Shown: positions 12,079 to 60,581 of the stretch, one piece after another
How positions within the stretch are numbered: position 1 is the stretch's first letter
Layout: each line of letters begins with the position of its first letter
Origin: Patescibacteria group bacterium
GTDB taxonomy: Bacteria > Patescibacteriota > Doudnabacteria > UBA920
Assembly (NCBI GenBank): GCA_013387205.1
Contig: WARV01000019.1
Coordinates: forward strand, 3,642 to 67,641
Direction of reading: 5' to 3'
Length of the DNA: 64,000 nucleotides
Program-made: the position numbers and the translations under genes
Notes under the pieces: model-generated
Databases searched by the model: none
What the model saw: only the letters and a program-made list of their open reading frames with translations
What the model was told of the DNA's origin: nothing

Positions 12079-12255
12079 TTTATACATAGAATAATCATTC
12101 TGAGCGACCGTAAAATAAATTCCTAATTCCTAATTCTCAAGCTCTAAACAATTTCTAATTTCCCAATTTCTTAATTTCAAATAATTTAGGCATTGGGTCA
12201 TTGGGATTTATTTAAAATAATTAGGTTAATTAAAAATTAGGTTAATTTTATATTA

Positions 12256-15786: not shown

Positions 15787-16062
15787 TTACTTGTTAGGGA
15801 CCAAGTCCACTCGCGGCTGAGCCCAAGGATTACATCTTGCAATTCTCTTGCCAGCTAAAAGACCGCCTTTTATCACACCATGTTTTTCTATGGCTTGTTT
15901 GCCGTATTCACTGCAAGAAGGATAATACTGGCAATAACCGTATGGATACCTGGCTTTAAACCAGCCGTGGTCAGGGGAAAGGGTTGCCTGGTAAAAACGG
16001 ATCAATAAAATTATTGACCTTTTAGGCAAGTTAACAATTATTTTATAAAACTTATTATCCAT
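15787..16062 (-). CDS. yidD: Membrane protein insertion efficiency factor YidD
   Basis: Conserved CxxxPxCSxY motif (CQYYPSCSEY). Synteny. Confidence 0.8.
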   Translation of the reverse strand: MDNKFYKIIVNLPKRSIILLIRFYQATLSPDHGWFKARYPYGYCQYYPSCSEYGKQAIEKHGVIKGGLLAGKRIARCNPWAQPRVDLVPNK

Positions 16063-16080
16063 ACTGGTATTATAACATTT

Positions 16081-16419
16081 TTAGATGCTAAATAACCGTG
16101 TCTTTTGGCCTAATTCTTTAAATTTTTCAACCAATTCTTTGTTTGGAAGCTTAGCAGCCTGCGGTTTTACCACAACCGCGTAGTCCCCAGGATGAAAAAT
16201 GCCTAAATTAAGCCTAATTGTTTCCCTTAACACCCTTTTCATCCTGTTTCTCTCAACTGCTTTTTTGGACACCTTTGTTGACACTACTACTGTAAAACGG
16301 ACACCTTCCGGCTTTTTCAGGTATTTAACAGTGAAATAAGGGTTAAAAAAAGGCCGTCCCCGCATGAAGACCAATTCAACATCTTTGGTTTTAGCGAGAC
16401 GGTTAGTTTTTTTAAACAT
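16081..16419 (-). CDS. rnpA: Ribonuclease P protein component
   Basis: Basic protein with KKAVERNRMKR RNR motif. Downstream of rpmH. Confidence 0.85.
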   Translation of the reverse strand: MFKKTNRLAKTKDVELVFMRGRPFFNPYFTVKYLKKPEGVRFTVVVSTKVSKKAVERNRMKRVLRETIRLNLGIFHPGDYAVVVKPQAAKLPNKELVEKFKELGQKTRLFSI

Positions 16420-16462
16420 AAATGATAATGGCGGCTGCGCAATTAAGGCAGCCGCCGCCTTT

Positions 16463-16600
16463 TTACACTACTGTTAATCTCTTGCGGCCCTTAGCTCTCC
16501 TGCTGGCCAGAACTTTTCTACCGGTTCTGGTTTGCATCCGCTTTAAGAACCCATGGCGTCTTTTTCTTCTTTTCACTTTTGGCTGGTATGTTCTCTTCAT
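16463..16600 (-). CDS. rpmH: 50S ribosomal protein L34
   Basis: Manual minus-strand translation gives [45 protein letters not shown]. Absent from the ORF track, which only lists ORFs of 60 aa or more. Confidence 0.9.
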
Positions 16601-16605
16601 TATAA

Positions 16606-16693
16606 AATCCTAATGCCCCGAATCAGCATCCGAATGCCCCAAACAATTCCCTTTCGGGTCATTTGGGTAAGAATTCGGGTAATTCGGATTATA
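16606..16693 (-). repeat. CCGAAT-rich leader element copy B (ends 5 nt before the rpmH ATG)
   Basis: Reverse complement is GTATAATCCGAATTACCCGAAT...CCAAATGACCCGAAAGGGAA...TTTGGGGCATTCGGATGCTGATTCGGGGCATTAGGATT. Confidence 0.9.
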
Positions 16694-16699
16694 CTTTTT

Positions 16700-16911
16700 A
16701 ATTTCTTGGTATATTATAAAGAAAAATAGAGGATTGGTCAATATTTCCCCTGACTTTTCTTTAATTTTCGCTAAGCACACTTTTTCCACAGCATATTCAC
16801 AGTATGTTAAAATTACCTTATAAACAAGCCTTAATTTTACTTGTTTACATGTTGATAACTCCCTGTTAAAATAAAAAAACACTGACAAACACAGATAAAA
16901 ACTAATTTTTT
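16700..16911. other. Candidate oriC part 1: DnaA-box-like motifs upstream of dnaA (TTTTCCACA at 16782; TTATCAACA reverse complement at 16852) in an AT-rich spacer
   Basis: 8/9 matches to TTATCCACA, read directly. Position between rpmH and dnaA. Confidence 0.4.
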
Positions 16912-18264
16912 ATGAACAACCAACAACTTTGGCAAGCTATCTTGGGAAGCCTGGAAGTATCACTAAGCAAAGCTAATTTTAACACTTGGTTTAAAAACAC
17001 CTCAATTGTAGAAAAAGGTGGGGATTTTATTATTGTCGGCGTCCCCAGCGCCTTTAACCGGGACTGGATCGCGGCAAAATACCACCAGGAAATGCTCAAA
17101 GCGTTAAAAACGCTGGCACCGGAAATTAAAGAAATAAAATACCAACTTGGAAACACTCCTTCGCCAGCACCCCAAAACACTCTTTCGCGCAATTCAGCCA
17201 AGCAGGAAGCCGTGAATTACAGCTATAAAGAAGTCCAGACCCTGCCAAATTCAGGCTTGAACCCCAAATACACTTTTGAAACCTTAATTATCGGGAAAAA
17301 TAACGAACTGGCGCACGCTGCCGCAATCGCTGTGGCAAAAAACCCAGGGGCCCAATATAACCCTTTGTTTATTTATGGGGGTGTTGGGCTTGGAAAAACC
17401 CACTTAATGCACGCGGTTGGCCACAAACTTCTGCAAAACAGCTATAAAAAGATTTTATACGTTACCAGCGAAAAATTCACCAACGATTACATAAACGCCA
17501 TCAGCCAAAAGAGGATGGAGGATTTTAAAAAGATCTACCGGGAAGTGGATGCGCTTTTGATTGACGACATCCAGTTTTTGGCCGGCAAAGAAGGGACACA
17601 GGAAGAATTTTTTCACACCTTCAATGAATTAAGGGATAAAGGAAAGCAGATAATTATAACTTCTGACAGGCCGCCAAAAGAAATCCCGGCTATTGAACAA
17701 AGGCTAATCTCCAGGTTTGAATGGGGGATGATAGCTGATATCCAGGCCCCGGATTTGGAAACCAGGATGGCGATTTTGCGCACCAAAATGGAAAAGCGGG
17801 GAGTGATGATTTCTGAAGAAATCCTGTTTTATATTGCGGAAAATATCCAAAGCAATGTCAGAGAATTAGAAGGTGCGCTTAACAGGCTGGCGGTTTACCA
17901 GCAAATGGAAAATAAAGGATTAATGCTCGAGCAGGCCAAAAGCATCCTTGCCAGTATTATCGGGGTAAAAAAGCGTGTGACTTCCATTAAGAAAATCGCC
18001 GAATCAGTCGCGGAGTTTTACAACATCACTGTAGACGACTTGCTTAAACAGTCGCGAAAAAAAGAATTTGTTAAACCCAGACAGATTGCCATGTATTTAA
18101 TCAGGAAAGAATTGGATAATTCTTTCCCTTCAATCGGGGAGTTTTTCGGCGGCCGCGACCACACCACCGTCATGCACGCTGTGGAGAAAGTGGAAAACAT
18201 GATTAGTGAAAAGGATAATTTTAAACAAGAAGTGGATTTAATTCTGGATAAGTTGTTTATATAA
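16912..18264 (+). CDS. dnaA: Chromosomal replication initiator DnaA
   Basis: Walker A GGVGLGKTHL, AAA+ domain, C-terminal DnaA-box-binding HTH. Confidence 0.95.
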   Translation: MNNQQLWQAILGSLEVSLSKANFNTWFKNTSIVEKGGDFIIVGVPSAFNRDWIAAKYHQEMLKALKTLAPEIKEIKYQLGNTPSPAPQNTLSRNSAKQEAVNYSYKEVQTLPNSGLNPKYTFETLIIGKNNELAHAAAIAVAKNPGAQYNPLFIYGGVGLGKTHLMHAVGHKLLQNSYKKILYVTSEKFTNDYINAISQKRMEDFKKIYREVDALLIDDIQFLAGKEGTQEEFFHTFNELRDKGKQIIITSDRPPKEIPAIEQRLISRFEWGMIADIQAPDLETRMAILRTKMEKRGVMISEEILFYIAENIQSNVRELEGALNRLAVYQQMENKGLMLEQAKSILASIIGVKKRVTSIKKIAESVAEFYNITVDDLLKQSRKKEFVKPRQIAMYLIRKELDNSFPSIGEFFGGRDHTTVMHAVEKVENMISEKDNFKQEVDLILDKLFI

Positions 18265-18517
18265 AGCTGGTGGTTTGTGGAAATTTTTAGTTTTGGATTT
18301 TTGGTTGGTGTTTGTGTTATAGTTACCAACTTAATAAACACATTGGTTTTAATAATAAATCCACAACTGAAAATTTCAAATATTGTTGATTTTATTACTG
18401 AATCAAACACCATCCACAAATCAACAAGTATTATTATAATTACTGATTATATAAATATATTTATATTAATAAAGAACAATAAGGCTTGAAAAAATTTCAA
18501 GCCAAAAGGCAAGGTTT
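18265..18517. other. Candidate oriC part 2: DnaA-box-like motifs (TTGTGGAAA at 18274, ATCCACAA at 18360 and 18413) plus an AT-rich unwinding-element-like stretch between dnaA and dnaN
   Basis: Motifs read directly. Classic dnaA-dnaN intergenic origin position. Confidence 0.45.
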
Positions 18518-19618
18518 ATGAAAGTAATATGCACCCAAGAAAATTTAAAATCCGGACTGGCCGCGGTGGGAAGAATAATTTCCTCTAACAGCAGTTTGCC
18601 GATTTTAAACAACATATTAATCAAAACCGAAAACGGGCTGCTTAAAATTTCTTCAACAAACCTGGAGATAGCCATTACCACACATATTAGATGCAAGGTT
18701 GAAGAAGAAGGTGAGACAACAGTGTTATCCAAAACAATAACCGATTTAATAAACAACCTGCCTAATAAAAACGTAGTTTTAACTGCAAAAGGCCCACAAA
18801 TGGATATTGAGGCGGAAAACTACCACACATCCATTAAAACACTTCCTGCCGAAGAGTTCCCATTAATCCCCAGTGTGGAAAATTCAGAAACTATATTAAT
18901 AGATTCCCAAAAAATAAAAGAAGCTATGGATCAGGTTGCTTTTGCGGCGTCAACCAACCAAACCCAGCCGGAAATTTCAGGAATCTTATTCAGCATTACC
19001 GGTGATGAAATGAAGGTTGTGGCTACTGACAGGTATAGGCTAGCGGAAAAAAAGACTAAGCTTTTAGAAAAACCCCACAAATCTTACGAGGTGATAGTTC
19101 CGCACAAAACCATCCAGGAATTATCAAGAATAATCGGCAGTCAAAAAGGTGTTGTGAATATGGTGTTCAGTGAAACCCAGGTGTCCATGTTCTTTAATGA
19201 CACGCAAATCATAAGCAGGTTGGTAGACGGCCAGTATCCGCCATACCAACAAATCATACCAACCGAGTTTATAACAACGGTTGTTGCCGATAAACAGGCG
19301 TTTATAAATGCCTTAAGGGCTGGAGGGGTGTTTAGCCAAGGAAGTAATAGTGTTAATTTAAGCTATGACAGCCAGAAGCAGATATTGACAGTGACATCTG
19401 AATCAAACGAGCTTGGTAAAAGCGTGGTGGAAGTACCGTCGCAGATCAAGGGGGACGCGGGAAGTTTGATACTTAACTACCATTACATCATTGATTGCCT
19501 GCAGAGCATTGAAACCCCGCAGGTAAAAATGGAAATTATAGACGACAGTTCTCCAAGCCTGATAGTGCCGATAGGTAAAAATGATTATACTTATTTAGTA
19601 ATGCCGATTAAAAGTTAA
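18518..19618 (+). CDS. dnaN: DNA polymerase III beta sliding clamp
   Basis: 366 aa. Three-domain beta-clamp pattern. Synteny after dnaA. Confidence 0.9.
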   Translation: MKVICTQENLKSGLAAVGRIISSNSSLPILNNILIKTENGLLKISSTNLEIAITTHIRCKVEEEGETTVLSKTITDLINNLPNKNVVLTAKGPQMDIEAENYHTSIKTLPAEEFPLIPSVENSETILIDSQKIKEAMDQVAFAASTNQTQPEISGILFSITGDEMKVVATDRYRLAEKKTKLLEKPHKSYEVIVPHKTIQELSRIIGSQKGVVNMVFSETQVSMFFNDTQIISRLVDGQYPPYQQIIPTEFITTVVADKQAFINALRAGGVFSQGSNSVNLSYDSQKQILTVTSESNELGKSVVEVPSQIKGDAGSLILNYHYIIDCLQSIETPQVKMEIIDDSSPSLIVPIGKNDYTYLVMPIKS

Positions 19619-30926: not shown

Positions 30927-30943
30927 TTTTCCTTCTTCTCGCG

Positions 30944-30979
30944 CGGGCGGTGATCGCAAGATTGCCGCCCGTGTTTTTT
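30944..30979 (+). terminator. Hairpin terminator CGGGCGG...CCGCCCG followed by a T-run
   Basis: 7-bp GC stem, TGTTTTTTA tail. Confidence 0.6.
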
Positions 30980-30995
30980 ATGATTGAAATTTTGG

Positions 30996-31038
30996 CAACA
31001 AGGGGCATCCTTGATCAGATCAAGGATGCCCCTTGTTG
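30996..31038. repeat. 43-bp near-perfect palindrome CAACAAGGGGCATCCTTGATC-A-GATCAAGGATGCCCCTTGTTG (AAGGATGCCCC family)
   Basis: Exact 21-bp arms. Shares the GGATGCCCC core with the hairpin at 27673. Confidence 0.85.
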
Positions 31039-31069
31039 AGTTGAAGTTTGTGTCGTAATAAAAATTTTA

Positions 31070-31098
31070 TGGACAAAAGCTGCAAAATTTGCTATAAT
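31070..31098 (+). promoter_or_regulatory. Sigma70 promoter TGGACA-17-TGcTATAAT (extended -10)
   Basis: Read directly. Upstream of the 31154 gene. Confidence 0.55.
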
Positions 31099-43305: not shown

Positions 43306-43358
43306 ATGTGATCGATATTGGCCAAAGTTACTCTTTGACCATAAAAATAACGGCTAAA

Positions 43359-43395
43359 TCCTAGGAAATTCAGGATTTAGCCGTTAAAAATATAT
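43359..43395. repeat. Hairpin AACGGCTAAATCCT-AGGAAATTC-AGGATTTAGCCGTT (AACGGCTAAAWCCTA family), downstream of uvrB
   Basis: 14-bp perfect stem flanked by A and T runs. Confidence 0.8.
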
Positions 43396-43509: not shown

Positions 43510-45591
43510 TTAACTTTTTACAAGACGCTTAATTTTTTTAATTTCATTAAGCCTGTCCCGAAGTTTTGCAGCCAGCTCGAATTCCAGGTTCTTTGCAGCC
43601 AGTTCCATTTGTTCATCAAGCTCGTCCATGTAAAACTTCAGTTCATTTTTATCCATCTTGGTTATGTCGGCATTAAACCGGCTTTCTGCTTCGGTGATAG
43701 ATTCGGCAGATCTTTGTCCTGCCAAGCGCGTATCGGCAATGGCTTTCTTTATAGATTGAGGAGTGATGCCGTGGGTCTTGTTGTATTTTTCCTGTATGGC
43801 TCTCCTTCTATTGGTTTCATCAATTGCCCGTTTCATTGATCCGGTAATTTTGTCCGCGTATAACACAGTGTGCCCGTTTAAGTGGCGGGCGGCGCGGCCC
43901 ATCATTTGCATGAAAAAAGTTTCTGATCTTAAAAATCCTTCCTTGTCAGCATCCAAAATTGTCACCAAAGAAACTTCGGGCAAATCCAATCCTTCGCGCA
44001 ACAGGTTAATGCCAACCAGCACGTCGTAAACGCCAAGGCGCAAGTCGCGCAGAGTTTCCAAGCGGTCAAAAGTATCCACGTCAGAATGCACGTAGTGCAC
44101 CTTAATGCCGTTTTCTTTCAGGTATTCACTCAGTTCTTCTGCCATGCGCTTGGTTAAGGTGGCAACTAAAACGCGCTCTTTGGCGGATATTCTTTCTTTG
44201 ATTCTTTCTATCAAGTCATCAACTTGGTTTTTTATTGGTTTAATTTCTATGGTTGGATCTATTAATCCCGTGGGGCGGATGATTTGTTCTATTATAGCCT
44301 CTTCATTTTTCCCTCTCCCTTGAGGGAGAGGGGGAGGGGTGAGGGGGATTAATCTTTTCGGTTTAAAATCTGCTTTTTGGTTCAGGCTGGCTTCAATTTC
44401 AAAATTGGCCGGCGTGGCGGAAACGAACACGGCCTGGCTGATTTTCTTTTCGAACTCGGCAAATTTTAACGGGCGGTTGTCGAGCGCAGAAGGCAGCCTA
44501 AAACCATAATCCACCAAAGTGGTTTTGCGCGACTTGTCGCCTTCGAACATGGCGCCGATTTGCGGTATGGTCTGGTGTGATTCGTCAATAAACAGCAAAA
44601 AGTCATCCGGAAAATAATCAATCAGCGTGGAAGGCGGTTCGCCCGCGCTGCGGCCGTCCAAATGCCTGGAGTAGTTTTCTATGCCGCTGACAAAACCGGT
44701 GTTGGTCAGCATTTCCAAATCAAAATTCGTGCGCTGCTCAAGGCGCTGGGCTTCCAAAAGCTTGCCCTGGGCTTTTAATTCTTTCAGCCTTTCCGCCAGT
44801 TCCAGCCGAACATTTTCCATGGCTTTTTGCAACTGGTCTTCGGGCGTGACAAAGTGCTTGGCCGGGAAAATAGTAAAGCTTTCCAAATTTTCCAGCTTTT
44901 CGCCAGTCAACGCGTCGAGTCTTTCTATTTTTTCAATTTCGTCGCCGAAAAAATCCATGCGGACGATGGTGTCTTCGGAAGACAGGATGATATCTAAAAT
45001 ATCTCCTTGCACCCTGAACGTGCCGCGCTGCAAATCGTAATCATTGCGGTGGTATTGCAAATCAGTCAGGCGGCGCAGCAGCTTGTCGCGCTTAAAGCCC
45101 ATGCCTTTTTTAATTTCCAAAGACAGTTCCAAATAATTGCCCGGGTTACCCAAGCCGTAAATGCAGGATACCGATGCGACTATTAATACGTCTTTGCGCG
45201 ACAGCAAAGATTGCGTGGCAGCGTTGCGCAAGCGGTCGATTTCTTCGTTTATTTGGGTTTCTTTTTCTATATAGGTATCGGAGCGGGGGATGTAAGCTTC
45301 GGGCTGGTAGTAATCGTAATAGGAAACGAAATAGTGGACCGCATTGTTTGGGAAAAATTCCTGGAATTCGCTGGCCAGCTGCGCTGCCAAAGTTTTGTTG
45401 TGGGAGATGACCAGGGTCGGTTTTTGCAAAGTTTCAACAACATTAGCCATGGTAAAAGTTTTGCCTGATCCGGTCACGCCCAAAAGCGTCTGGTATTTGC
45501 GTCCAGTTTGCAAAGATTTAATCAAGCCTTCAATTGCTGCAGGCTGGTCACCTGCTGGCTTAAATTTTGAATTTAAAATAAATTTTTCCAT
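43510..45591 (-). CDS. uvrB: Excinuclease ABC subunit B
   Basis: Walker A GVTGSGKTFT, helicase motifs, the beta-hairpin region and a C-terminal UvrB/UvrC-interaction domain. 693 aa. Confidence 0.95.
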   Translation of the reverse strand: MEKFILNSKFKPAGDQPAAIEGLIKSLQTGRKYQTLLGVTGSGKTFTMANVVETLQKPTLVISHNKTLAAQLASEFQEFFPNNAVHYFVSYYDYYQPEAYIPRSDTYIEKETQINEEIDRLRNAATQSLLSRKDVLIVASVSCIYGLGNPGNYLELSLEIKKGMGFKRDKLLRRLTDLQYHRNDYDLQRGTFRVQGDILDIILSSEDTIVRMDFFGDEIEKIERLDALTGEKLENLESFTIFPAKHFVTPEDQLQKAMENVRLELAERLKELKAQGKLLEAQRLEQRTNFDLEMLTNTGFVSGIENYSRHLDGRSAGEPPSTLIDYFPDDFLLFIDESHQTIPQIGAMFEGDKSRKTTLVDYGFRLPSALDNRPLKFAEFEKKISQAVFVSATPANFEIEASLNQKADFKPKRLIPLTPPPLPQGRGKNEEAIIEQIIRPTGLIDPTIEIKPIKNQVDDLIERIKERISAKERVLVATLTKRMAEELSEYLKENGIKVHYVHSDVDTFDRLETLRDLRLGVYDVLVGINLLREGLDLPEVSLVTILDADKEGFLRSETFFMQMMGRAARHLNGHTVLYADKITGSMKRAIDETNRRRAIQEKYNKTHGITPQSIKKAIADTRLAGQRSAESITEAESRFNADITKMDKNELKFYMDELDEQMELAAKNLEFELAAKLRDRLNEIKKIKRLVKS

Positions 45592-45687
45592 AAAATATAG
45601 GACTAATAGGGCAGATACGACTTATTAGCCATCTTTAATCATAACAGATTTATTTTTACCTTGTCTATACATTAAGATATGAAAAAA

Positions 45688-46110
45688 GCCACGGATGCAT
45701 CCCAAGTCCGTGGCTTCTTTGGAGAATCATCCGTTTGGCCAACGAATGAAATTTTTGAGGAGGGCAGCCAGGCGGCTGCCCCTGCCGTTATTACCAGAAT
45801 GCCGATTGGAATTCTGGTTTTTGCTGGTCCTTAAGGAAAGGACGCGCGCTTGCGGGAGCGGCAACTAAAAATCGCTTCAAGAAGGTTTGCGGATATTTTG
45901 TAGGATAGTCCACGCGCGTTCTTTGGCAATCTTTAGTCCTCGAACTTAAAAATCCTCTTTATTATTGCTGGTGGGTGAAAACGCTGCTGAGGCTTTCTTC
46001 ATCAGAGGAACAGAATTGGCCAAGGACTGGCCTTGTGGACTGCCAGGGGTTTTGTGTTGCGGATCCAGCGTTTTCACCCATTTGAGTTAAATTCAGATTA
46101 CTTAATTAAG
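45688..46110. other. GC-rich, highly structured ~420-bp non-coding region between uvrB and ruvA
   Basis: No ORF. Hairpin GCCACGGAT...CCGTGGC at 45690-45722 with a T6 run on the minus strand. A 14-bp inverted repeat GGGTGAAAACGCTG / CAGCGTTTTCACCC encloses ~95 nt with internal hairpins. Candidate ncRNA or MITE. Confidence 0.35.
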
Positions 46111-46116
46111 GTTTTT

Positions 46117-46145
46117 TTGTCAATAAGCGCGAGAATTGGTAAAAT
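46117..46145 (+). promoter_or_regulatory. Sigma70-like promoter TTGTCA-17-TAAAAT for ruvA, followed by a ~100-nt leader with ACGCGGA direct repeats and TTATC(T/C)GCG motifs
   Basis: Read directly. A TTGACA on the opposite strand shares the same -35 position. Confidence 0.45.
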
Positions 46146-46248
46146 ATAAATGCCGCGGAACAGACGCGGATAGCAACGCGGATTCCTCGCTGACAACCGC
46201 TTTCTGCGTGTTATCTGCGTAGTTATCCGCGAATAATCAGCGGTATAT

Positions 46249-46809
46249 ATGATTGCATTTTTAAAAGGCACAATTTTAGAGAAGGGGCTGACTTATATCA
46301 TCCTGGAAAACAACGGGATTGGGTATAAGGTTTTTGTCACGCCGGAAACTTTGGAATTAAAACAGGGAGACGAGGCAGCGCTTTACACGTACTTAAAGGT
46401 TTCCGACGACGGGCAATCTTTGTTCGGGCTTTCCGATTTTGCCACGCTGCAGTTTTTTGAAATGCTGATAACGGTTTCCGGAGTCGGGCCCAAAGTGGCT
46501 TTGGCAATTTTGTCCGCAGCTAAAGTTGATACAATCAAACAGGCCATAGCCAACCAGGACGCGGGCGTGTTCACGCGCATTTCCGGCGTGGGCAATAAAA
46601 CAGCGGAAAGGATAATATTGGAGCTCAAAAACAAAGTGGGAACCATTGAAGTTTCCGCAGGTGTGGCTGGCAGCAGCGAAGTGTTTGAAGCTTTGGTATC
46701 TTTGGGTTATAACCAAAAAGAAGTCAGGGAAGCGCTAAAGCGGGTGAATACCACTTTGCCGGTGCAGGAACAATTGAAGCAGGCATTGCAAGTTTTAGGC
46801 AAGGCTTAA
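46249..46809 (+). CDS. ruvA: Holliday junction DNA helicase RuvA
   Basis: MIAFLKGTI N-terminus, OB fold, and two HhH motifs (GVGPKVA and GVGNKTA). Confidence 0.9.
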   Translation: MIAFLKGTILEKGLTYIILENNGIGYKVFVTPETLELKQGDEAALYTYLKVSDDGQSLFGLSDFATLQFFEMLITVSGVGPKVALAILSAAKVDTIKQAIANQDAGVFTRISGVGNKTAERIILELKNKVGTIEVSAGVAGSSEVFEALVSLGYNQKEVREALKRVNTTLPVQEQLKQALQVLGKA

Positions 46810-46936
46810 AATTAAATTGATCTAATTATTTTAATTTCTAATTGACCTAAATAAACCCCAATCCCTAAATCCCAATTAGACATTAGATATTATTTAAAAT
46901 AATTAGATCAATTAGGTTAATTAGGAATTTGCAAAC

Positions 46937-47974
46937 GTGAAATTAATTGAGATTAAAGACAATCAGAAAAGTGATTACAACCGTTTCGTAATGAATTGTG
47001 AAACGGGTTCTTTTTTGCAGTCCTGGGAATGGGGGAAGTGGCAGGAGAAAATAGGCCGGGAGGTTTACAGGTTTTTTTGCGAAGATGGCGATAAGGTTGT
47101 CGCATCGCTGCAACTAGAACAAAGGCCTCTGCCAATGGGGCAGTATTATTTGTATTGTCCGTATGGACCAGTGGTAGATTTAGGATTTAAGATCGAAGAT
47201 TTAAGAATTATCTTAGAACAATTAAGGCAAAAATTTCCTAAAGCAATATTTATCCGCATTGAGCCAAAAAATCTTAGCAACTTACAACTTACAACTCACA
47301 ACTCGCCTATAATTAAATCGGCAAATATACAACCGGCAAAGACGCTTATTGTCGATTTAACCAGACCTGAAGAACAGGTGCTTTCCGAAATGCACCATAA
47401 GACGCGTTACAACATCAGGCTTGCCCAAAAACACGGAGTAAAAATCCAGGACGAATTCTGTATTAGCATTGGCAACGGCTTGTTTTTTAAGGAAGCGGTT
47501 GATTTAATTTTGCAAACTGCGCAAAGGCAAAGCTTTAATACTTATCCGGCAAAATATTACGACGGCTTGATTAATGCCTTGGCTTTGAATAATCGCAACG
47601 GCGATTTAAGGCTTCATGTTTATAAGGCAGTTTACAAAAACCAGCTTTTGTCCGCAGCGATAATGCTGGATTTTGGCAAAACCAGGACATTTTTGTTTGG
47701 CGGTTCGTCGATGGAGCACAAAAATGTCATGGCTCCGTACTTACTCCACTTCCAAGCCATGGCTGACGCAAAAAAGCAGGGGATGGAGCAGTATGATTTT
47801 TGGGGGATTGAGACATCCAGCGGCGAGACTCCGGGTTTTGTCAGGTTCAAGCTTGGTTTTGGCGGAAAAGCCGTAGAATATCCTGGAGCTTATGATATTG
47901 TACAAAATAAATTTGTATACGAATTGTATAAAGTTTTCAGAAAAATCCATCGGCTGGCAAATCGAGCTAAATAA
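46937..47974 (+). CDS. FemAB-family peptidoglycan peptide-bridge aminoacyltransferase (GTG start)
   Basis: FemAB/FemX-like duplicated GNAT fold. Motifs YLLHFQAM and FWGIE. Confidence 0.7.
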   Translation: MKLIEIKDNQKSDYNRFVMNCETGSFLQSWEWGKWQEKIGREVYRFFCEDGDKVVASLQLEQRPLPMGQYYLYCPYGPVVDLGFKIEDLRIILEQLRQKFPKAIFIRIEPKNLSNLQLTTHNSPIIKSANIQPAKTLIVDLTRPEEQVLSEMHHKTRYNIRLAQKHGVKIQDEFCISIGNGLFFKEAVDLILQTAQRQSFNTYPAKYYDGLINALALNNRNGDLRLHVYKAVYKNQLLSAAIMLDFGKTRTFLFGGSSMEHKNVMAPYLLHFQAMADAKKQGMEQYDFWGIETSSGETPGFVRFKLGFGGKAVEYPGAYDIVQNKFVYELYKVFRKIHRLANRAK

Positions 47975-48012: not shown

Positions 48013-48028
48013 TTATAATGGAGATTTT

Positions 48029-48065
48029 AACGGCTAAATCCTAGATATTTTAGGATTTAGCCGTT
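48029..48065. repeat. Hairpin AACGGCTAAATCCTA-GATATTT-TAGGATTTAGCCGTT (AACGGCTAAAWCCTA family)
   Basis: 15-bp perfect stem between the convergent FemAB and Clp genes. Confidence 0.8.
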
Positions 48066-48079
48066 TAATTTATAGTTTA

Positions 48080-50740
48080 TTACTTAACCACTAATTCACC
48101 GTCAACTAAATCTATTGTGACATTGGAACCCCTTGGAAGTTTTTGGCCGAGCAGGAGCTTGGAGATGAATCCTTCCACATGGTCTTGGATATAGCGGCGG
48201 ATGGGGCGGGCGCCGAGCAGGGGATCGTAAGCATTTTTTGAAATATCATCAATGATATTTTGGGAGAATTCCAGTTTGATTCCTTTTTCTTTAAGTTTTT
48301 CCCGCAAATATTCCAGTTGCAGGAAAGAGATGCGTTGGACTTCTTCCCTGCTTAACGGATTGAACAGGATTATGCTGTCAAAACGATTTAATAGTTCTGG
48401 CGGGAAAATTGACGTTAGGGTCTGGTTAAAAAGCCGGGTCTTTATCTGGTCTAAGGTCAGTCCCGTTCTTATCCCTTCCTGGATTTCCTTGGTGCCGGCG
48501 TTGGACGTGGCGATAATTAGCGCGTGGGTGACGTCCAGCGTTTCACCCTTTCCCGTCGTCAACCTGCCGTCTTCCAAAACCTCCAAAAAGATATTTAAAA
48601 TTTCCGGGCTGGCTTTTTCGAATTCATCCAGCAAAAGCAGGCAGAACGGGTAATTTTTTAAGTGTTTTACTAAAGCCGTATCAACACTGCTTCCGGCGTT
48701 TCCTAAAAGCTTGCCTAAGCCTTCCTGGCCGCGATATTCAGACATATCCAAACGCAGCAGGTATTGTTCGCCTTTGGCGCTGTCTTGTCCAAAGTAAACC
48801 CTGGCTAAAGTTTTGGCAATTTCGGTCTTGCCAACGCCGGTTGGGCCCAAAAACAGAAACGATGCCAGCGGCCTGGTGGACGCGGTAAGCCCGCTGCGCG
48901 AGCGCCTTAAGCCTTCTGCTATGGCTTTGACCGCCTGGCTTTGGCCGACAATGTATTTGGCCATGGTCTGTTCAAGATTTAGCAGTTTCTCCGCTTCGGT
49001 TTTATTGAAAGCCTGGGAAGGGATATGCGTCCTTTCGCTGACTATTTTTTGGATTAATTCTTCGCCGATAATTTTTATTTTGAAATTTTTTGCCCGTGTC
49101 GCGGCTTCCACCAAAACGCTTATGGCCTTTTGCGGCTGGTCAGCGCCTTTTACGTACAAGTCCGTAGTTTCGACCGCTTGTTTAATGGCCTGGTATTTAT
49201 AGAAGCACTGGCTTTTTCCTTCCAGCAAGGTGGCTTTAACGCAGCAAGCCAGCATAATCCCTTCGTGGCTCAAGTGGCTTAATTCGTAAGATACGAAAGT
49301 GCTGTCAAAATTGGCGGTGTCGCGCAAGTATTCGGTATAATCTTCCAGAGTCGTGGTGCCAATGGCCAGTAGGTGGCTGTTTTCCAAAAAATTAACCAGC
49401 AGTTCCAGAAGGCTTAATCCCGAAGATGAAGAGGTGCGGGCTAAGTCGTGCATATCTTCAATCACCAAAATAATGTTCCCGGAATTCTCCGCTTCCTTGA
49501 GCGCCTGTACTAGCACGTTTTCCGCTTTTCCGCTGTTGCCTAAAATGGCCGAAGTTTCCAGCTTGACCAAACGCTTGTCCTGCAAAACTTCGGGAACCTG
49601 TTCCGTAGCCATTTTGTAAGCCAGTTCGTTTACGACAGTGGTGCGTCCGGATCCCTTTGGCCCTTTAATGATGATATTTTTTCCGCCGTCGCTTACTAGC
49701 GAAAAAATTTCGTGCAAATCCAAACCCCTGCCCAAAGCCAGAGGCAACGCGCCGTTCTTGGCCAAAAATGTCAGGTCCTGGCTGAAGTGGTCAAGATAGG
49801 GAGAAGGCAGGGAGGTTAGCCCTTTGTTTATTTCGTTGTCCGGTTTGAGTTTGGAAAGCTTTTTAAAAACCCGCAAGTCTTCCCGCAGCAAACGGATGTT
49901 AAACACCCAAGCGGCAATTATTTCCAAATCTTCCAAAGACAAATTGATGTTAAAGAAAATTGCCTGGATAAAATGATCCTGGGGCAACGCAATTGCCAGC
50001 GCGCACAGCAGCATTAGCGGGTCAAGCTGCCGGTTGTGGAGCTTGACGCTTTCCGAAAACGCCACAAAAGGGATTTGCAGGAGTTCGCCTTTTAAAGCTA
50101 TTGTGTTGACTATGGCATATTCTGACAAAAGCGTTTTAATATCCTCGATATTTATACCAAGCCGCATGAATACCAAAATCACTTCCTTGTCTTCAAGCAA
50201 AGCCGAGAGTAAATCTAAGGCCGTAACAGAGCCGTTACTTTTCCCGTCCAAATTTAATTTTTCCCGCTGCCTGCTTCTTTGTTTGGCCAGTTCAAAAGAT
50301 TTGTTCCAGCATCTTTTGGCTTCGGGGCTGAAAAATTCGTAAATGTCCAGGCTGGCCTTTTTTCCTTCGGCTGCCTGCTGCTGGCTCCAGTTGAGCAGGT
50401 TTATCTTGTCGCGGTCCAATTCCTGCTGTTTGCGTTTGGCCCATAAATAGCAGCAGCTGAATGCGGCTACCCAGACAGAAAGGGACAAGTATGACCTGTC
50501 GAAAATATCAGGAAGCGTGCCGGTATTTAAAGACATCCAGACCACAAAAGCCAAAGAAAAAAAACCCAGCGCCACGAAGACCCATAGCGCTAAATTGACA
50601 GCCTTATCGGCAAATAATTCTATGTTTTCATTGCTTATCCTGTCCTCGGAAAAGCTGCCGGAGAAGGTTAGTTCCACTCCGTCTGCTTGCGATTTTACCG
50701 GCCATTCGTTTTTTGTTTTTTTGTATTCGTGGTTGATCAT
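48080..50740 (-). CDS. ClpA/ClpB/ClpC-family double-AAA+ ATPase with an N-terminal membrane anchor (2 TM helices)
   Basis: Two Walker A motifs (GPKGSGRTTV and GPTGVGKTEIAK). Sensor-2 GARPIRRYIQ. N-terminal hydrophobic helices LALWVFVALGFFSLAFVVWM and LSVWVAAFSCCYLW. Confidence 0.8.
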   Translation of the reverse strand: MINHEYKKTKNEWPVKSQADGVELTFSGSFSEDRISNENIELFADKAVNLALWVFVALGFFSLAFVVWMSLNTGTLPDIFDRSYLSLSVWVAAFSCCYLWAKRKQQELDRDKINLLNWSQQQAAEGKKASLDIYEFFSPEAKRCWNKSFELAKQRSRQREKLNLDGKSNGSVTALDLLSALLEDKEVILVFMRLGINIEDIKTLLSEYAIVNTIALKGELLQIPFVAFSESVKLHNRQLDPLMLLCALAIALPQDHFIQAIFFNINLSLEDLEIIAAWVFNIRLLREDLRVFKKLSKLKPDNEINKGLTSLPSPYLDHFSQDLTFLAKNGALPLALGRGLDLHEIFSLVSDGGKNIIIKGPKGSGRTTVVNELAYKMATEQVPEVLQDKRLVKLETSAILGNSGKAENVLVQALKEAENSGNIILVIEDMHDLARTSSSSGLSLLELLVNFLENSHLLAIGTTTLEDYTEYLRDTANFDSTFVSYELSHLSHEGIMLACCVKATLLEGKSQCFYKYQAIKQAVETTDLYVKGADQPQKAISVLVEAATRAKNFKIKIIGEELIQKIVSERTHIPSQAFNKTEAEKLLNLEQTMAKYIVGQSQAVKAIAEGLRRSRSGLTASTRPLASFLFLGPTGVGKTEIAKTLARVYFGQDSAKGEQYLLRLDMSEYRGQEGLGKLLGNAGSSVDTALVKHLKNYPFCLLLLDEFEKASPEILNIFLEVLEDGRLTTGKGETLDVTHALIIATSNAGTKEIQEGIRTGLTLDQIKTRLFNQTLTSIFPPELLNRFDSIILFNPLSREEVQRISFLQLEYLREKLKEKGIKLEFSQNIIDDISKNAYDPLLGARPIRRYIQDHVEGFISKLLLGQKLPRGSNVTIDLVDGELVVK

Positions 50741-54837: not shown

Positions 54838-55085
54838 AATTTATTTAAATATTATTTAAAAAACATGGTTGTAAATTGACCTAATTAACCTAATTAACCT
54901 AATTTCCGCCAGCTGGCGGACTAAACAAACCCCAATTCCCAATTCCTAATACTAACTCCCTCTGTCTCCCTCTTTAGAAAAGAGGGAGAACATGCTAAGA
55001 AAGGCTATAGCCTTGCTTAGCTGGTTCCTTCTCTTTTTCTAAAGAGAAGGGCAGGATGAGTTAATAATAATTAGAATAATTTTTT

Positions 55086-60288: not shown

Positions 60289-60366
60289 ATCTATATAAAA
60301 ATCTTTTAAAATTCAACTTTTTATCATTCAAAAATTAACCTAATTCCTAATTAACCTAATTTCTAA

Positions 60367-60482
60367 ACCCCGTAATACAACATTCGATATGGTTAGTAAT
60401 ATCAATATGTTGATAATATTAAAGGCTTAGTGGTTATCAATACTTGGTAAAGCAACAGAATCAAATGTTGATATACGGGGTA
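60367..60482. repeat. ~115-bp inverted-repeat element upstream of rpoC (CCCCGTAATACAACATTCGATATGG ... CAGAATCAAATGTTGATATACGGGG)
   Basis: Terminal inverted repeats CCCCGTAATACAACATTCGAT / ATCAAATGTTGATATACGGGG. Copy of the element at 56174. Confidence 0.7.
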
Positions 60483-60581
60483 AACAAACCCCAAATCCTA
60501 ATATCTAAACATTAGAAATTGGGAATTAGACATTATTTAGGTCAATTAGAGCAATTAGAATAATTAGAATAATTTATCTCT

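Follow-up and report, generated by a model that had tools for sequence, protein, structure and literature searches.

What occupies the 657 nt gap (45592-46248) that separates the DNA-repair genes uvrB and ruvA on contig WARV01000019.1 of a Patescibacteria group bacterium? All coordinates refer to the window, by which we mean the whole 64 kb stretch of that contig analysed here, and the best-matching RuvA relatives of the window are metagenome-assembled genomes of Candidatus Doudnabacteria, members of the candidate phyla radiation (CPR). To our knowledge, almost nothing is known about the non-coding RNAs of CPR bacteria. We give about an even chance to the explanation that the minus strand of the spacer carries a stable-RNA gene of its own, so far unannotated, which descends from a tRNA operon and yields products that would act in trans. 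The basis of this explanation is the anatomy of the sequence, the strand-specific conservation of its frame, strong and strand-biased folding, and the absence of both a known family and a coding signal. An initial annotation had proposed, among other readings, a novel structured ncRNA, and as a candidate that proposal is supported. The sequence features listed in that annotation were all found in the spacer by direct reading and repeat finding, with small corrections. The corrected map shows a pair of promoters set back to back, then the RNA unit and its terminator, and last the promoter of uvrB.

Read on the minus strand, the spacer has the full layout of a transcription unit, from promoter through terminator. 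A putative sigma-70-type promoter (46123-46095; TTGACA at 46123-46118, 17 nt, TAATCT at 46100-46095) stands back to back with the ruvA promoter and would start a transcript near 46088. After a leader of about 8 nt would follow element X (46080-45969), a hairpin domain of 112 nt composed of UGGGUGAAAACGCUG, 79 nt, CAGCGUUUUCACCCA and then CCA, whose 15 bp stem and 3′ ACCA appear to imitate the acceptor end of a tRNA. Directly after X lies a conserved trailer, GCAAUAAUAAAGAGGAUUUUU (GCAAUAAUAAAGAGGAUUUU; 45948-45968), which is common to relatives and includes a Shine-Dalgarno-like motif that has no start codon within usable reach. Next comes a putative structured RNA body of about 220 nt, Y (45729-45947), whose several predicted hairpins include GGGGCAGCC/GGCUGCCCU and CCAGAAUKCC/GGMAUUCUGG, together with a long-range helix, AAAGAACGCGCG/CGCGCGUCCUUU. 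The palindromes reported in the initial annotation, GGGCAGCC-AGGC-GGCTGCCC (45763-45782) and ACCAGAATGCC/GGAATTCTGGT (45793-45818), are both present. Y is followed by the motif GAUUCUCC (45721-45728), and the primary transcript would be about 400 nt long.

Transcription of the RNA unit would end at a strong intrinsic terminator, AAAGAAGCCACGGA-CUUGGGAUGCA-UCCGUGGCUUUUUU (45720-45682), which was recognized both as an inverted repeat and in the minimum free energy (MFE) fold of the minus strand, and which has an 8 bp GC-rich core stem, extendable to 14 pairs, followed by U6. A consensus scan did not list it because its loop exceeds 8 nt. The hairpin had been described before as GCCACGGA...TCCGTGGC at 45688-45714 (45682-45720 and 93% complementary when its A/T extension is included) and interpreted as a minus-strand terminator that shields uvrB, the A6 ahead of it on the plus strand being the T6 after it on the minus strand. 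This interpretation holds well: the T-run is present on the minus strand only, and relatives share the layout, with the T-run CTTTTTTT on the minus strand of 18 spacers vs the plus strand of 3 (among 34 distinct spacers), followed by TGTTATGAT. Directly after the T-run stands the separate uvrB promoter (45667-45638, minus; TAGACA, 18 nt, TG-n-TATGAT), which scored 10/12 with its TG in the promoter scan, and a conserved 5′ untranslated region (UTR) then extends to the uvrB ATG at 45591. Promoter and UTR together (45596-45677, ...CTGTTATGATTAAAGATGGCTAATAAGTCGTATCTGCCCTATTAGTCCTATA) are 83% identical over 83 nt to one relative, L253 (relatives' loci are cited here by L numbers). This stretch may be a regulatory leader.

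The end of X reads GGGUGAA/UUCACCC, A, CCA (46079-45969), with G1-C72, G2-C71, G3-C70 and A73. It thus comprises a 7 bp acceptor stem, a discriminator and an encoded CCA behind a short leader, as in a tRNA, and the promoter -10 element ends 15 nt upstream. The genuine tRNA-Ile of the window ends CACGCCCACCA, then a terminator, and the 3′ end of X, CACCCACCA, is of the same kind. Judged by its sequence, X is most likely a tRNA-acceptor mimic. Its closing stem is 100% complementary over 15 bp. An inverted repeat had been noted here before, TGGGTGAAAACGCTG/CAGCGTTTTCACCCA (45972-45986 and 46066-46080), and it is present, but its arms are 15 bp long rather than 14, the enclosed stretch is 79 nt instead of some 95, and its last position is 46080 instead of 46094. 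By folding, the 79 nt interior is a branched domain and not a continuous hairpin.

X also stands where a relative has a tRNA. In L009 the corresponding position is taken by a tRNA-Lys that ends ...CUCCA and is followed by GCAAUAUUAAAGAGGAUU; the same trailer, CCA-GCAAUAWUAAAGAGGAUU, comes after this tRNA, after X and after an 80 nt X-like element in L088. Because the same trailer follows both the tRNA-Lys of L009 and X, X occupies a tRNA slot. The L088 element has the terminal sequences of X (UGGGUG...CCCACCA) at the same site, around a different interior. When the two stems were compared by eye (UGGGUG-AAA.../...UUU-CACCCA in the window vs UGGG(U)G-GGG.../...CCC-CCCCA in L088), they differed by three A-U to G-C double changes.

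About 35 distinct loci, drawn from collections of genomes and metagenomes, preserve the gene order uvrB-ruvA-femAB, with spacers of 86 to 2839 nt that mostly measure 400-800 nt. Within these spacers the frame has the order found in the window, opening with the promoter, which is followed by a structured part, a motif of the GGAGGAUU type, a further structured part, the terminator and TGTTATGAT, and in every case the unit is co-oriented with uvrB and directly upstream of it. Strand counts over the 34 distinct spacers are one-sided: the promoter motif TTGACAAA is on the minus strand in 24 and on the plus strand in none, and minus vs plus counts are 18 and 1 for CTCCTC, 11 and 2 for ATTCTC, and 10 and 3 for AAAGAGG. 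The trailer is common to L009 (after the tRNA-Lys), L088, unit 2 of L081 and L253 (after a tRNA-like gene), whilst the nearest group (L253, L088, L089 and L254) has the pre-terminator motif GAUUCUCC, as GAUUCUCYC, right before the terminator.

What fills this frame in relatives points to its origin. Minus-strand tRNA or aberrant tRNA-like genes lie within it in nine relatives (L008, L009, L012, L021, L084, L093, L096, L253 and L254). Real tRNAs are found in L009 (Lys and Gln), L012 (Lys), L093 (Thr), L096 (Trp) and L254 (Arg and Asn), and aberrant tRNA-like genes in L008, L021, L084 and L253; in L084 and L096 the Shine-Dalgarno-like motif precedes a tRNA, not an open reading frame (ORF). L253 is the only relative with a clear anticodon-less tRNA-Ala-like gene (87 nt, 1246-1332, minus), in which the acceptor (G3.U70, A73, CCA), D and T arms are intact and the anticodon arm is replaced by a closed 6+4 bp hairpin with a 4 nt loop. 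On the Rfam model of transfer-messenger RNA (tmRNA) this gene reaches 36.6 bits, below the gathering score of 47, and a second, degenerate tRNA-like gene lies at 1137-1210 of the same locus. Other oddities were seen in L021 (3387-4000, minus), where one tRNA has a 10 nt anticodon loop and the D loop of a second is interrupted by a hairpin of about 46 nt, and in L084, whose tRNA has a 6 nt anticodon loop.

The layout and its counterparts together suggest a model for the window. The transcript would be cut by tRNA-processing enzymes, with RNase P acting at G46079 and 3′ trimming proceeding to the CCA, so as to excise X, and one or two folded RNAs would be released to act in trans. On this model the unit would have replaced the real tRNAs that are still present in the same frame of relatives.

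Folding agrees with an RNA product on the minus strand. The description of the spacer as highly structured is borne out by folding of the whole spacer, with a plus-strand z of -7.5 and a minus-strand z of -8.8. A fold scan over 852 segments of 150 nt (mean z -0.7, sd 1.9) placed two minus-strand segments, 45642-45791 and 45792-45941, in the top 2% or so, with z of -5.8 and -6.2. The whole unit folds with z = -6.6 on the minus vs -3.7 on the plus strand, and for the stretch around Y (45676-45968) the minus strand reaches -107.7 kcal/mol (z -6.9) vs -102.2 kcal/mol (z -3.3) for the plus strand, an advantage that arises despite the better average folding of the shuffled plus-strand sequence. Among relatives, the minus strand has the more negative z in 22 of 25 units, typically -5 to -10. 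The spacer was also said to be GC-rich, which it is not: its GC content is 44.3% vs 44.0% for the whole window, merely the high end among intergenic gaps (0.30-0.51).

Alignment of syntenic regions gave a divided answer on covariation, with compensatory changes in subgroups of relatives and an interior that otherwise does not align from genus to genus, that of the window included. The one subgroup that can be aligned comprises L087 (594-1172), L004 (1872-2449) and L003 (3469-4000), whose minus-strand RNA of about 450 nt shows compensatory double changes in 25 of 152 predicted pairs, contains the conserved blocks CAGAYAAGCGUAAG, CCCCGGGUGGCG and CGCCACCCGCACCAUCUUGGGUGCCACAC, and has no Rfam match. 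A tRNA-sized domain of the X type recurs on the minus strands of L082 (530-631), L092 (2743-2828) and L096 (744-832) as GGnnGCGG-UCCCnUnnGGGA...UUCGA-like loop...CCGCnnCC; its 10 bp closing stem and the adjacent hairpin are kept through double changes, and relaxed ARAGORN calls the L092 copy a tRNA. The covariation and strand bias of relatives support selected structure at this locus, which is not proof for the window's own Y.

No established RNA family accounts for the unit. Identity with RNase P RNA, 6S RNA, tmRNA or signal recognition particle (SRP) RNA had been suggested, and the covariance-model search proposed as a check was run with Rfam 15. At the gathering score the spacer gave no match, the single match in the window being a tRNA at 1051-1124. 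A permissive search (E<=10) of the 851 nt stretch 45500-46350 on both strands returned weak, chance-level matches only, mostly driven by the terminator hairpin, with none to RNase P, 6S, tmRNA or SRP models; in 25 relatives' loci, whose spacers were searched at E<=5, only tRNAs were found, plus the sub-threshold tmRNA match of L253. Each family was also considered on its structural features. RNase P RNA (A and B) gave no model match, and of its conserved P4 strands (GGAAAGUCC ... ACAGAA-N-CCGGCUUA) no complementary partner is seen in the sequence; the resemblance of AGGAAAGG...ACAGAA to P4 that had been remarked upon lies on the plus strand, whereas the evidence points to the minus strand. For 6S RNA there was no covariance-model match, and the predicted folds are multi-branched, unlike the single long irregular hairpin of about 180 nt, with a central bubble, that characterizes this RNA. 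ARAGORN found no tmRNA in the window and Rfam gave no match to one, and X has G3-C70, not G3.U70, and no T arm. Neither Bacteria_small_SRP nor Bacteria_large_SRP matched at E<=10, and no domain IV motif is present. Nor does X form a cloverleaf: ARAGORN (default and relaxed) and the Rfam tRNA model were negative across the spacer, and relaxed ARAGORN with introns produced noise only.

Several observations weigh against a stable-RNA gene descended from a tRNA operon. TAATCT is a poor -10 hexamer, and because it matches the consensus at only three of six positions the RNA-unit promoter was not recovered by the consensus promoter scan. X lacks the D, anticodon and T arms, not all X domains of relatives end in ACCA, and X (fold z = -3.1) folds at least as well on the plus strand, so X alone does not discriminate between strands. 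A covariance model of the L082/L092/L096 domain matches only its three sources and nothing in the window, and the X domains of different genera are therefore not one family. Pairing between GAGGAU (5′) and AUUCUC (3′) across the unit was not significant (fraction vs controls 0.19 for the window; median 0.21 across 14 units); we keep this bracket helix as a possibility only, because it does no better than many control segments.

Divergence is a further difficulty for this reading. Searches of genome, metagenome and protein-cluster collections yielded no relative above about 78-80% RuvA identity, and the interior of the window's unit aligns with none, so that its fold is without covariation support. 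In blastn comparisons of the spacer with 160 loci nothing was found at E 0.01, and the best matches at E<=1 (0.044) were a 21-mer next to the tRNA-Lys of L009 and the ruvA promoter. Four further spacers gave one real match, to L253, over the uvrB promoter and leader and not the RNA unit, and the loci of eight close RuvA homologues provided comparators (L161, L164, L253 and L254) but no orthologue of X or Y. A conserved uvrB promoter and UTR (83% with L253) beside an unalignable RNA unit is as compatible with weak constraint or turnover as with function.

It is conceivable, though unlikely, that the unit is the decaying relic of a tRNA operon, its tRNAs moved or lost and the remainder transcribed as hairpin-rich junk with no function of its own. 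Decay of this kind would suit the wide range of spacer lengths, the occurrence in relatives of real tRNAs (Lys, Gln, Thr, Trp, Asn and Arg) next to visibly damaged ones, and the failure of the interior to align even with L253; yet the folding lies far beyond shuffled controls and is strand-biased in most units, the L088 counterpart of the perfect 15 bp stem stays paired through double changes, and short motifs (the trailer and GAUUCUCC) are kept amid changed surroundings. CPR genomes are compact and tiny, and most relatives nevertheless retain 400-800 nt here. More doubtful is the notion that X (45972-46080) is a small mobile element, akin to a miniature inverted-repeat transposable element (MITE), that landed in the spacer, its ACCA being a coincidence or the leftover of a lost tRNA. 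The perfect 15 bp inverted repeat around 79 nt is of the terminal kind found in MITEs, and further long-spaced inverted repeats occur in the window, including one (46815-46913) that has partial copies elsewhere in the window. No second copy of the inverted-repeat unit, of either arm or of any part of the spacer exists within the 64 kb window, however, and the flanks of X (...gctgg | element | tttga...) are not a direct repeat and thus show no target-site duplication. Phage and plasmid collections contain nothing similar to the spacer; in viral contigs there were 87 matches to an arm of X, all single-arm and about the number estimated by chance for a 15-mer. L088, moreover, shares the terminal sequences of X at the same site around a different interior, which also speaks against a mobile element.

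A long regulated leader of uvrB, in which X and Y would be read through and the terminator would act as a conditional attenuator, seems to us a little less probable again. The invariable position of the unit, co-oriented with uvrB and directly upstream, would favour it, but uvrB has its own conserved extended -10 promoter right after the T-run, the terminator is strong with no alternative anti-terminator pairing evident in MFE or centroid folds, the unit in relatives holds tRNA genes whose products exist in their own right, and the interior is not conserved, unlike that of ligand-binding leaders. We would be surprised if the unit encoded one or more very small proteins, such as a basic 31-amino-acid (aa) ORF from a TTG at 45929 behind GAGGA or ORFs of 40-45 aa. 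The spacer is not ORF-free as had been worded, since it holds ORFs of 40-57 aa, none of them conserved; Shine-Dalgarno-like motifs are present, and L001 has a plausible 54 aa ORF behind the motif. Against this, neither the window nor most relatives have a start codon 4-10 nt behind the conserved motif, what follows the motif in L084 and L096 is a tRNA, every frame of the tblastx matches among the spacers is interrupted by stop codons, and five candidate peptides used as tblastn queries found nothing. Least probable of all is a divergent universal RNA (RNase P RNA, 6S RNA, tmRNA or SRP RNA). Its length, its structure and the loose AGGAAAGG/ACAGAA resemblance on the plus strand would be in keeping with one, as would a likeness to 4.5S RNA, which in E. 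coli is also a hairpin (about 114 nt) whose 3′ end resembles that of a tRNA. No such model matched the isolated region at E<=10 on either strand or, apart from the tmRNA match of L253, the relatives' spacers at E<=5, and the G3-C70 pair of X, the missing SRP domain IV motif and the missing P4 partner strands count against it too.

On its plus strand the spacer would also serve ruvA. The ruvA promoter postulated in the initial annotation is present as the promoter-like site TTGTCA-17-TAAAAT with an upstream TG (46117-46145), which scored 10/12 with the TG in the scan. Its -35 element overlaps that of the minus-strand RNA promoter, forming the palindrome TTGTCAA. This promoter is the sole part of the spacer recovered by weak blastn matches in several relatives, and the best-conserved stretch of the spacer, GAATTGGTAARAT, is part of it. 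The CGCGGA repeats noted earlier in the ruvA leader (97 nt, 46146-46250, plus) do exist, and they lie within a 48 nt imperfect palindrome built of units of about 12 nt, CGCGGAWA on one arm and TTATCYGCG on the other, in a tandem repeat of period 12. The leader RNA folds into a long 5′ hairpin that reaches the AUG (-47 kcal/mol, z = -5.9). It is lineage-specific and not conserved in relatives, and it could be a translational hairpin, a stability hairpin or an operator array. No obvious Shine-Dalgarno sequence precedes ruvA or uvrB. In two relatives, public gene calls place a 115 aa ORF with no Pfam match directly upstream of ruvA on the plus strand (L164, 735-1082; L253, 1445-1792); the L164 ORF faces the structured minus-strand RNA unit from the other strand, and that of L253 lies upstream of the unit's promoter. 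The call may be spurious, at least in L164.

The genes around the spacer were assigned with Pfam as UvrB (43510-45591, minus), RuvA (46249-46809, plus), a FemAB-family protein (46937-47974) and a ClpB-type ATPase (48080-50740). Between ruvA and the FemAB-family gene (46813-46934) lies an AT-rich, MITE-like element with perfect 20 nt inverted repeats 59 nt apart, and partial copies of it occur at 60481-60576, 54869-54906, 60332-60366 and 12219-12249. Near-identical terminator-like palindromes, AACGGCTAAAnCCT...AGGnTTTAGCCGTT, mark the 3′ ends of uvrB (43338-43394), clpB (48025-48076) and a third gene (697-745). The most extreme fold of the window (z about -16) is at 30942-31091, where a terminator adjoins a perfect 21 bp palindrome, CAACAAGGGGCATCCTTGATC/GATCAAGGATGCCCCTTGTTG. 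We also considered a replication origin at the spacer and rejected it: there is no skew switch there, and DnaA-box-like sites cluster at 16-19 kb instead. At 16055-18882, seven such sites (<=1 mismatch) coincide with the cumulative GC skew minimum and a 450 aa ORF is found at 16912-18264; the oriC/dnaA region may lie here.

A several-hundred-base gap kept at one position clade-wide, and filled with strongly folded, fast-changing RNA in a tRNA-operon frame, would represent a new class of RNA gene specific to its lineage, and the locus could offer a rare view of tRNA genes turning into something else. If its tRNA-like products are charged and used outside translation, they would also have a bearing on cell-wall synthesis in these organisms. 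The unannotated sequence flagged here is what gene callers skip or mis-call.

Among known systems, the RtT RNA of the E. coli tyrT operon and the 3′ external transcribed spacer (ETS) of glyW-cysT-leuZ are small RNAs freed from tRNA operon transcripts. The window's unit shares with them a structured non-tRNA segment behind a tRNA position within one promoter-to-terminator unit, and from this gene layout release by tRNA-processing nucleases would be expected. It differs in having no sequence or Rfam relation to either, in the replacement of the tRNA by a hairpin mimic and in the much greater length of the downstream RNA. RNase P also acts on hairpin substrates with a tRNA-like end, such as the precursor of E. 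coli 4.5S RNA, acceptor minihelices and the eukaryotic MALAT1 mascRNA. X appears to share with these the minimal set of features in common with tRNA, namely a short 5′ leader, a helix of 12 bp or more and RCCA overhanging at the 3′ end; unlike them, it has a branched 79 nt interior in place of a continuous hairpin, and it does not match Bacteria_small_SRP.

Orphan structured RNAs have been sought in long, comparatively GC-rich intergenic regions (PMC6429828, PMC8632094). The spacer resembles those candidates in its long gap, coding-like GC content and strong folding, but they were defined by covariation over many representatives, whereas the window's unit is a singleton at the sequence level, with only the frame and short motifs in common with relatives.

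A final comparison is with RNAs that retain a tRNA-like end without decoding. Aminoacyl-tRNA is the source of the amino acids that Fem transferases use, and what these enzymes recognize is chiefly its acceptor arm; FemXWv reads mainly the G2-C71 pair of that arm (PMC2655667), and X has G2-C71. The FemAB-family gene lies about 860 nt from X and is next to ruvA throughout the clade, a link to X that is positional only. As a speculative long shot, which we would expect to prove wrong, the uvrB-ruvA spacer of Doudnabacteria might be a nursery of non-decoding tRNA derivatives, ranging from the chargeable tRNA-like RNA of L253 to X, that serve as aminoacyl carriers for the FemAB-family peptidoglycan transferase; if this were true, carrier RNAs would keep cell-wall amino-acid transfer apart from translation. 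X differs from its non-decoding counterparts in lacking a T arm and G3.U70, and because of this no aminoacyl-tRNA synthetase can be assigned to it. Staphylococci, for their part, keep a special non-proteogenic tRNA-Gly for Fem transferases (PMC7826273), and this tRNA and the tRNA-like domain of tmRNA have in common with X an acceptor helix and a CCA end without a working anticodon.

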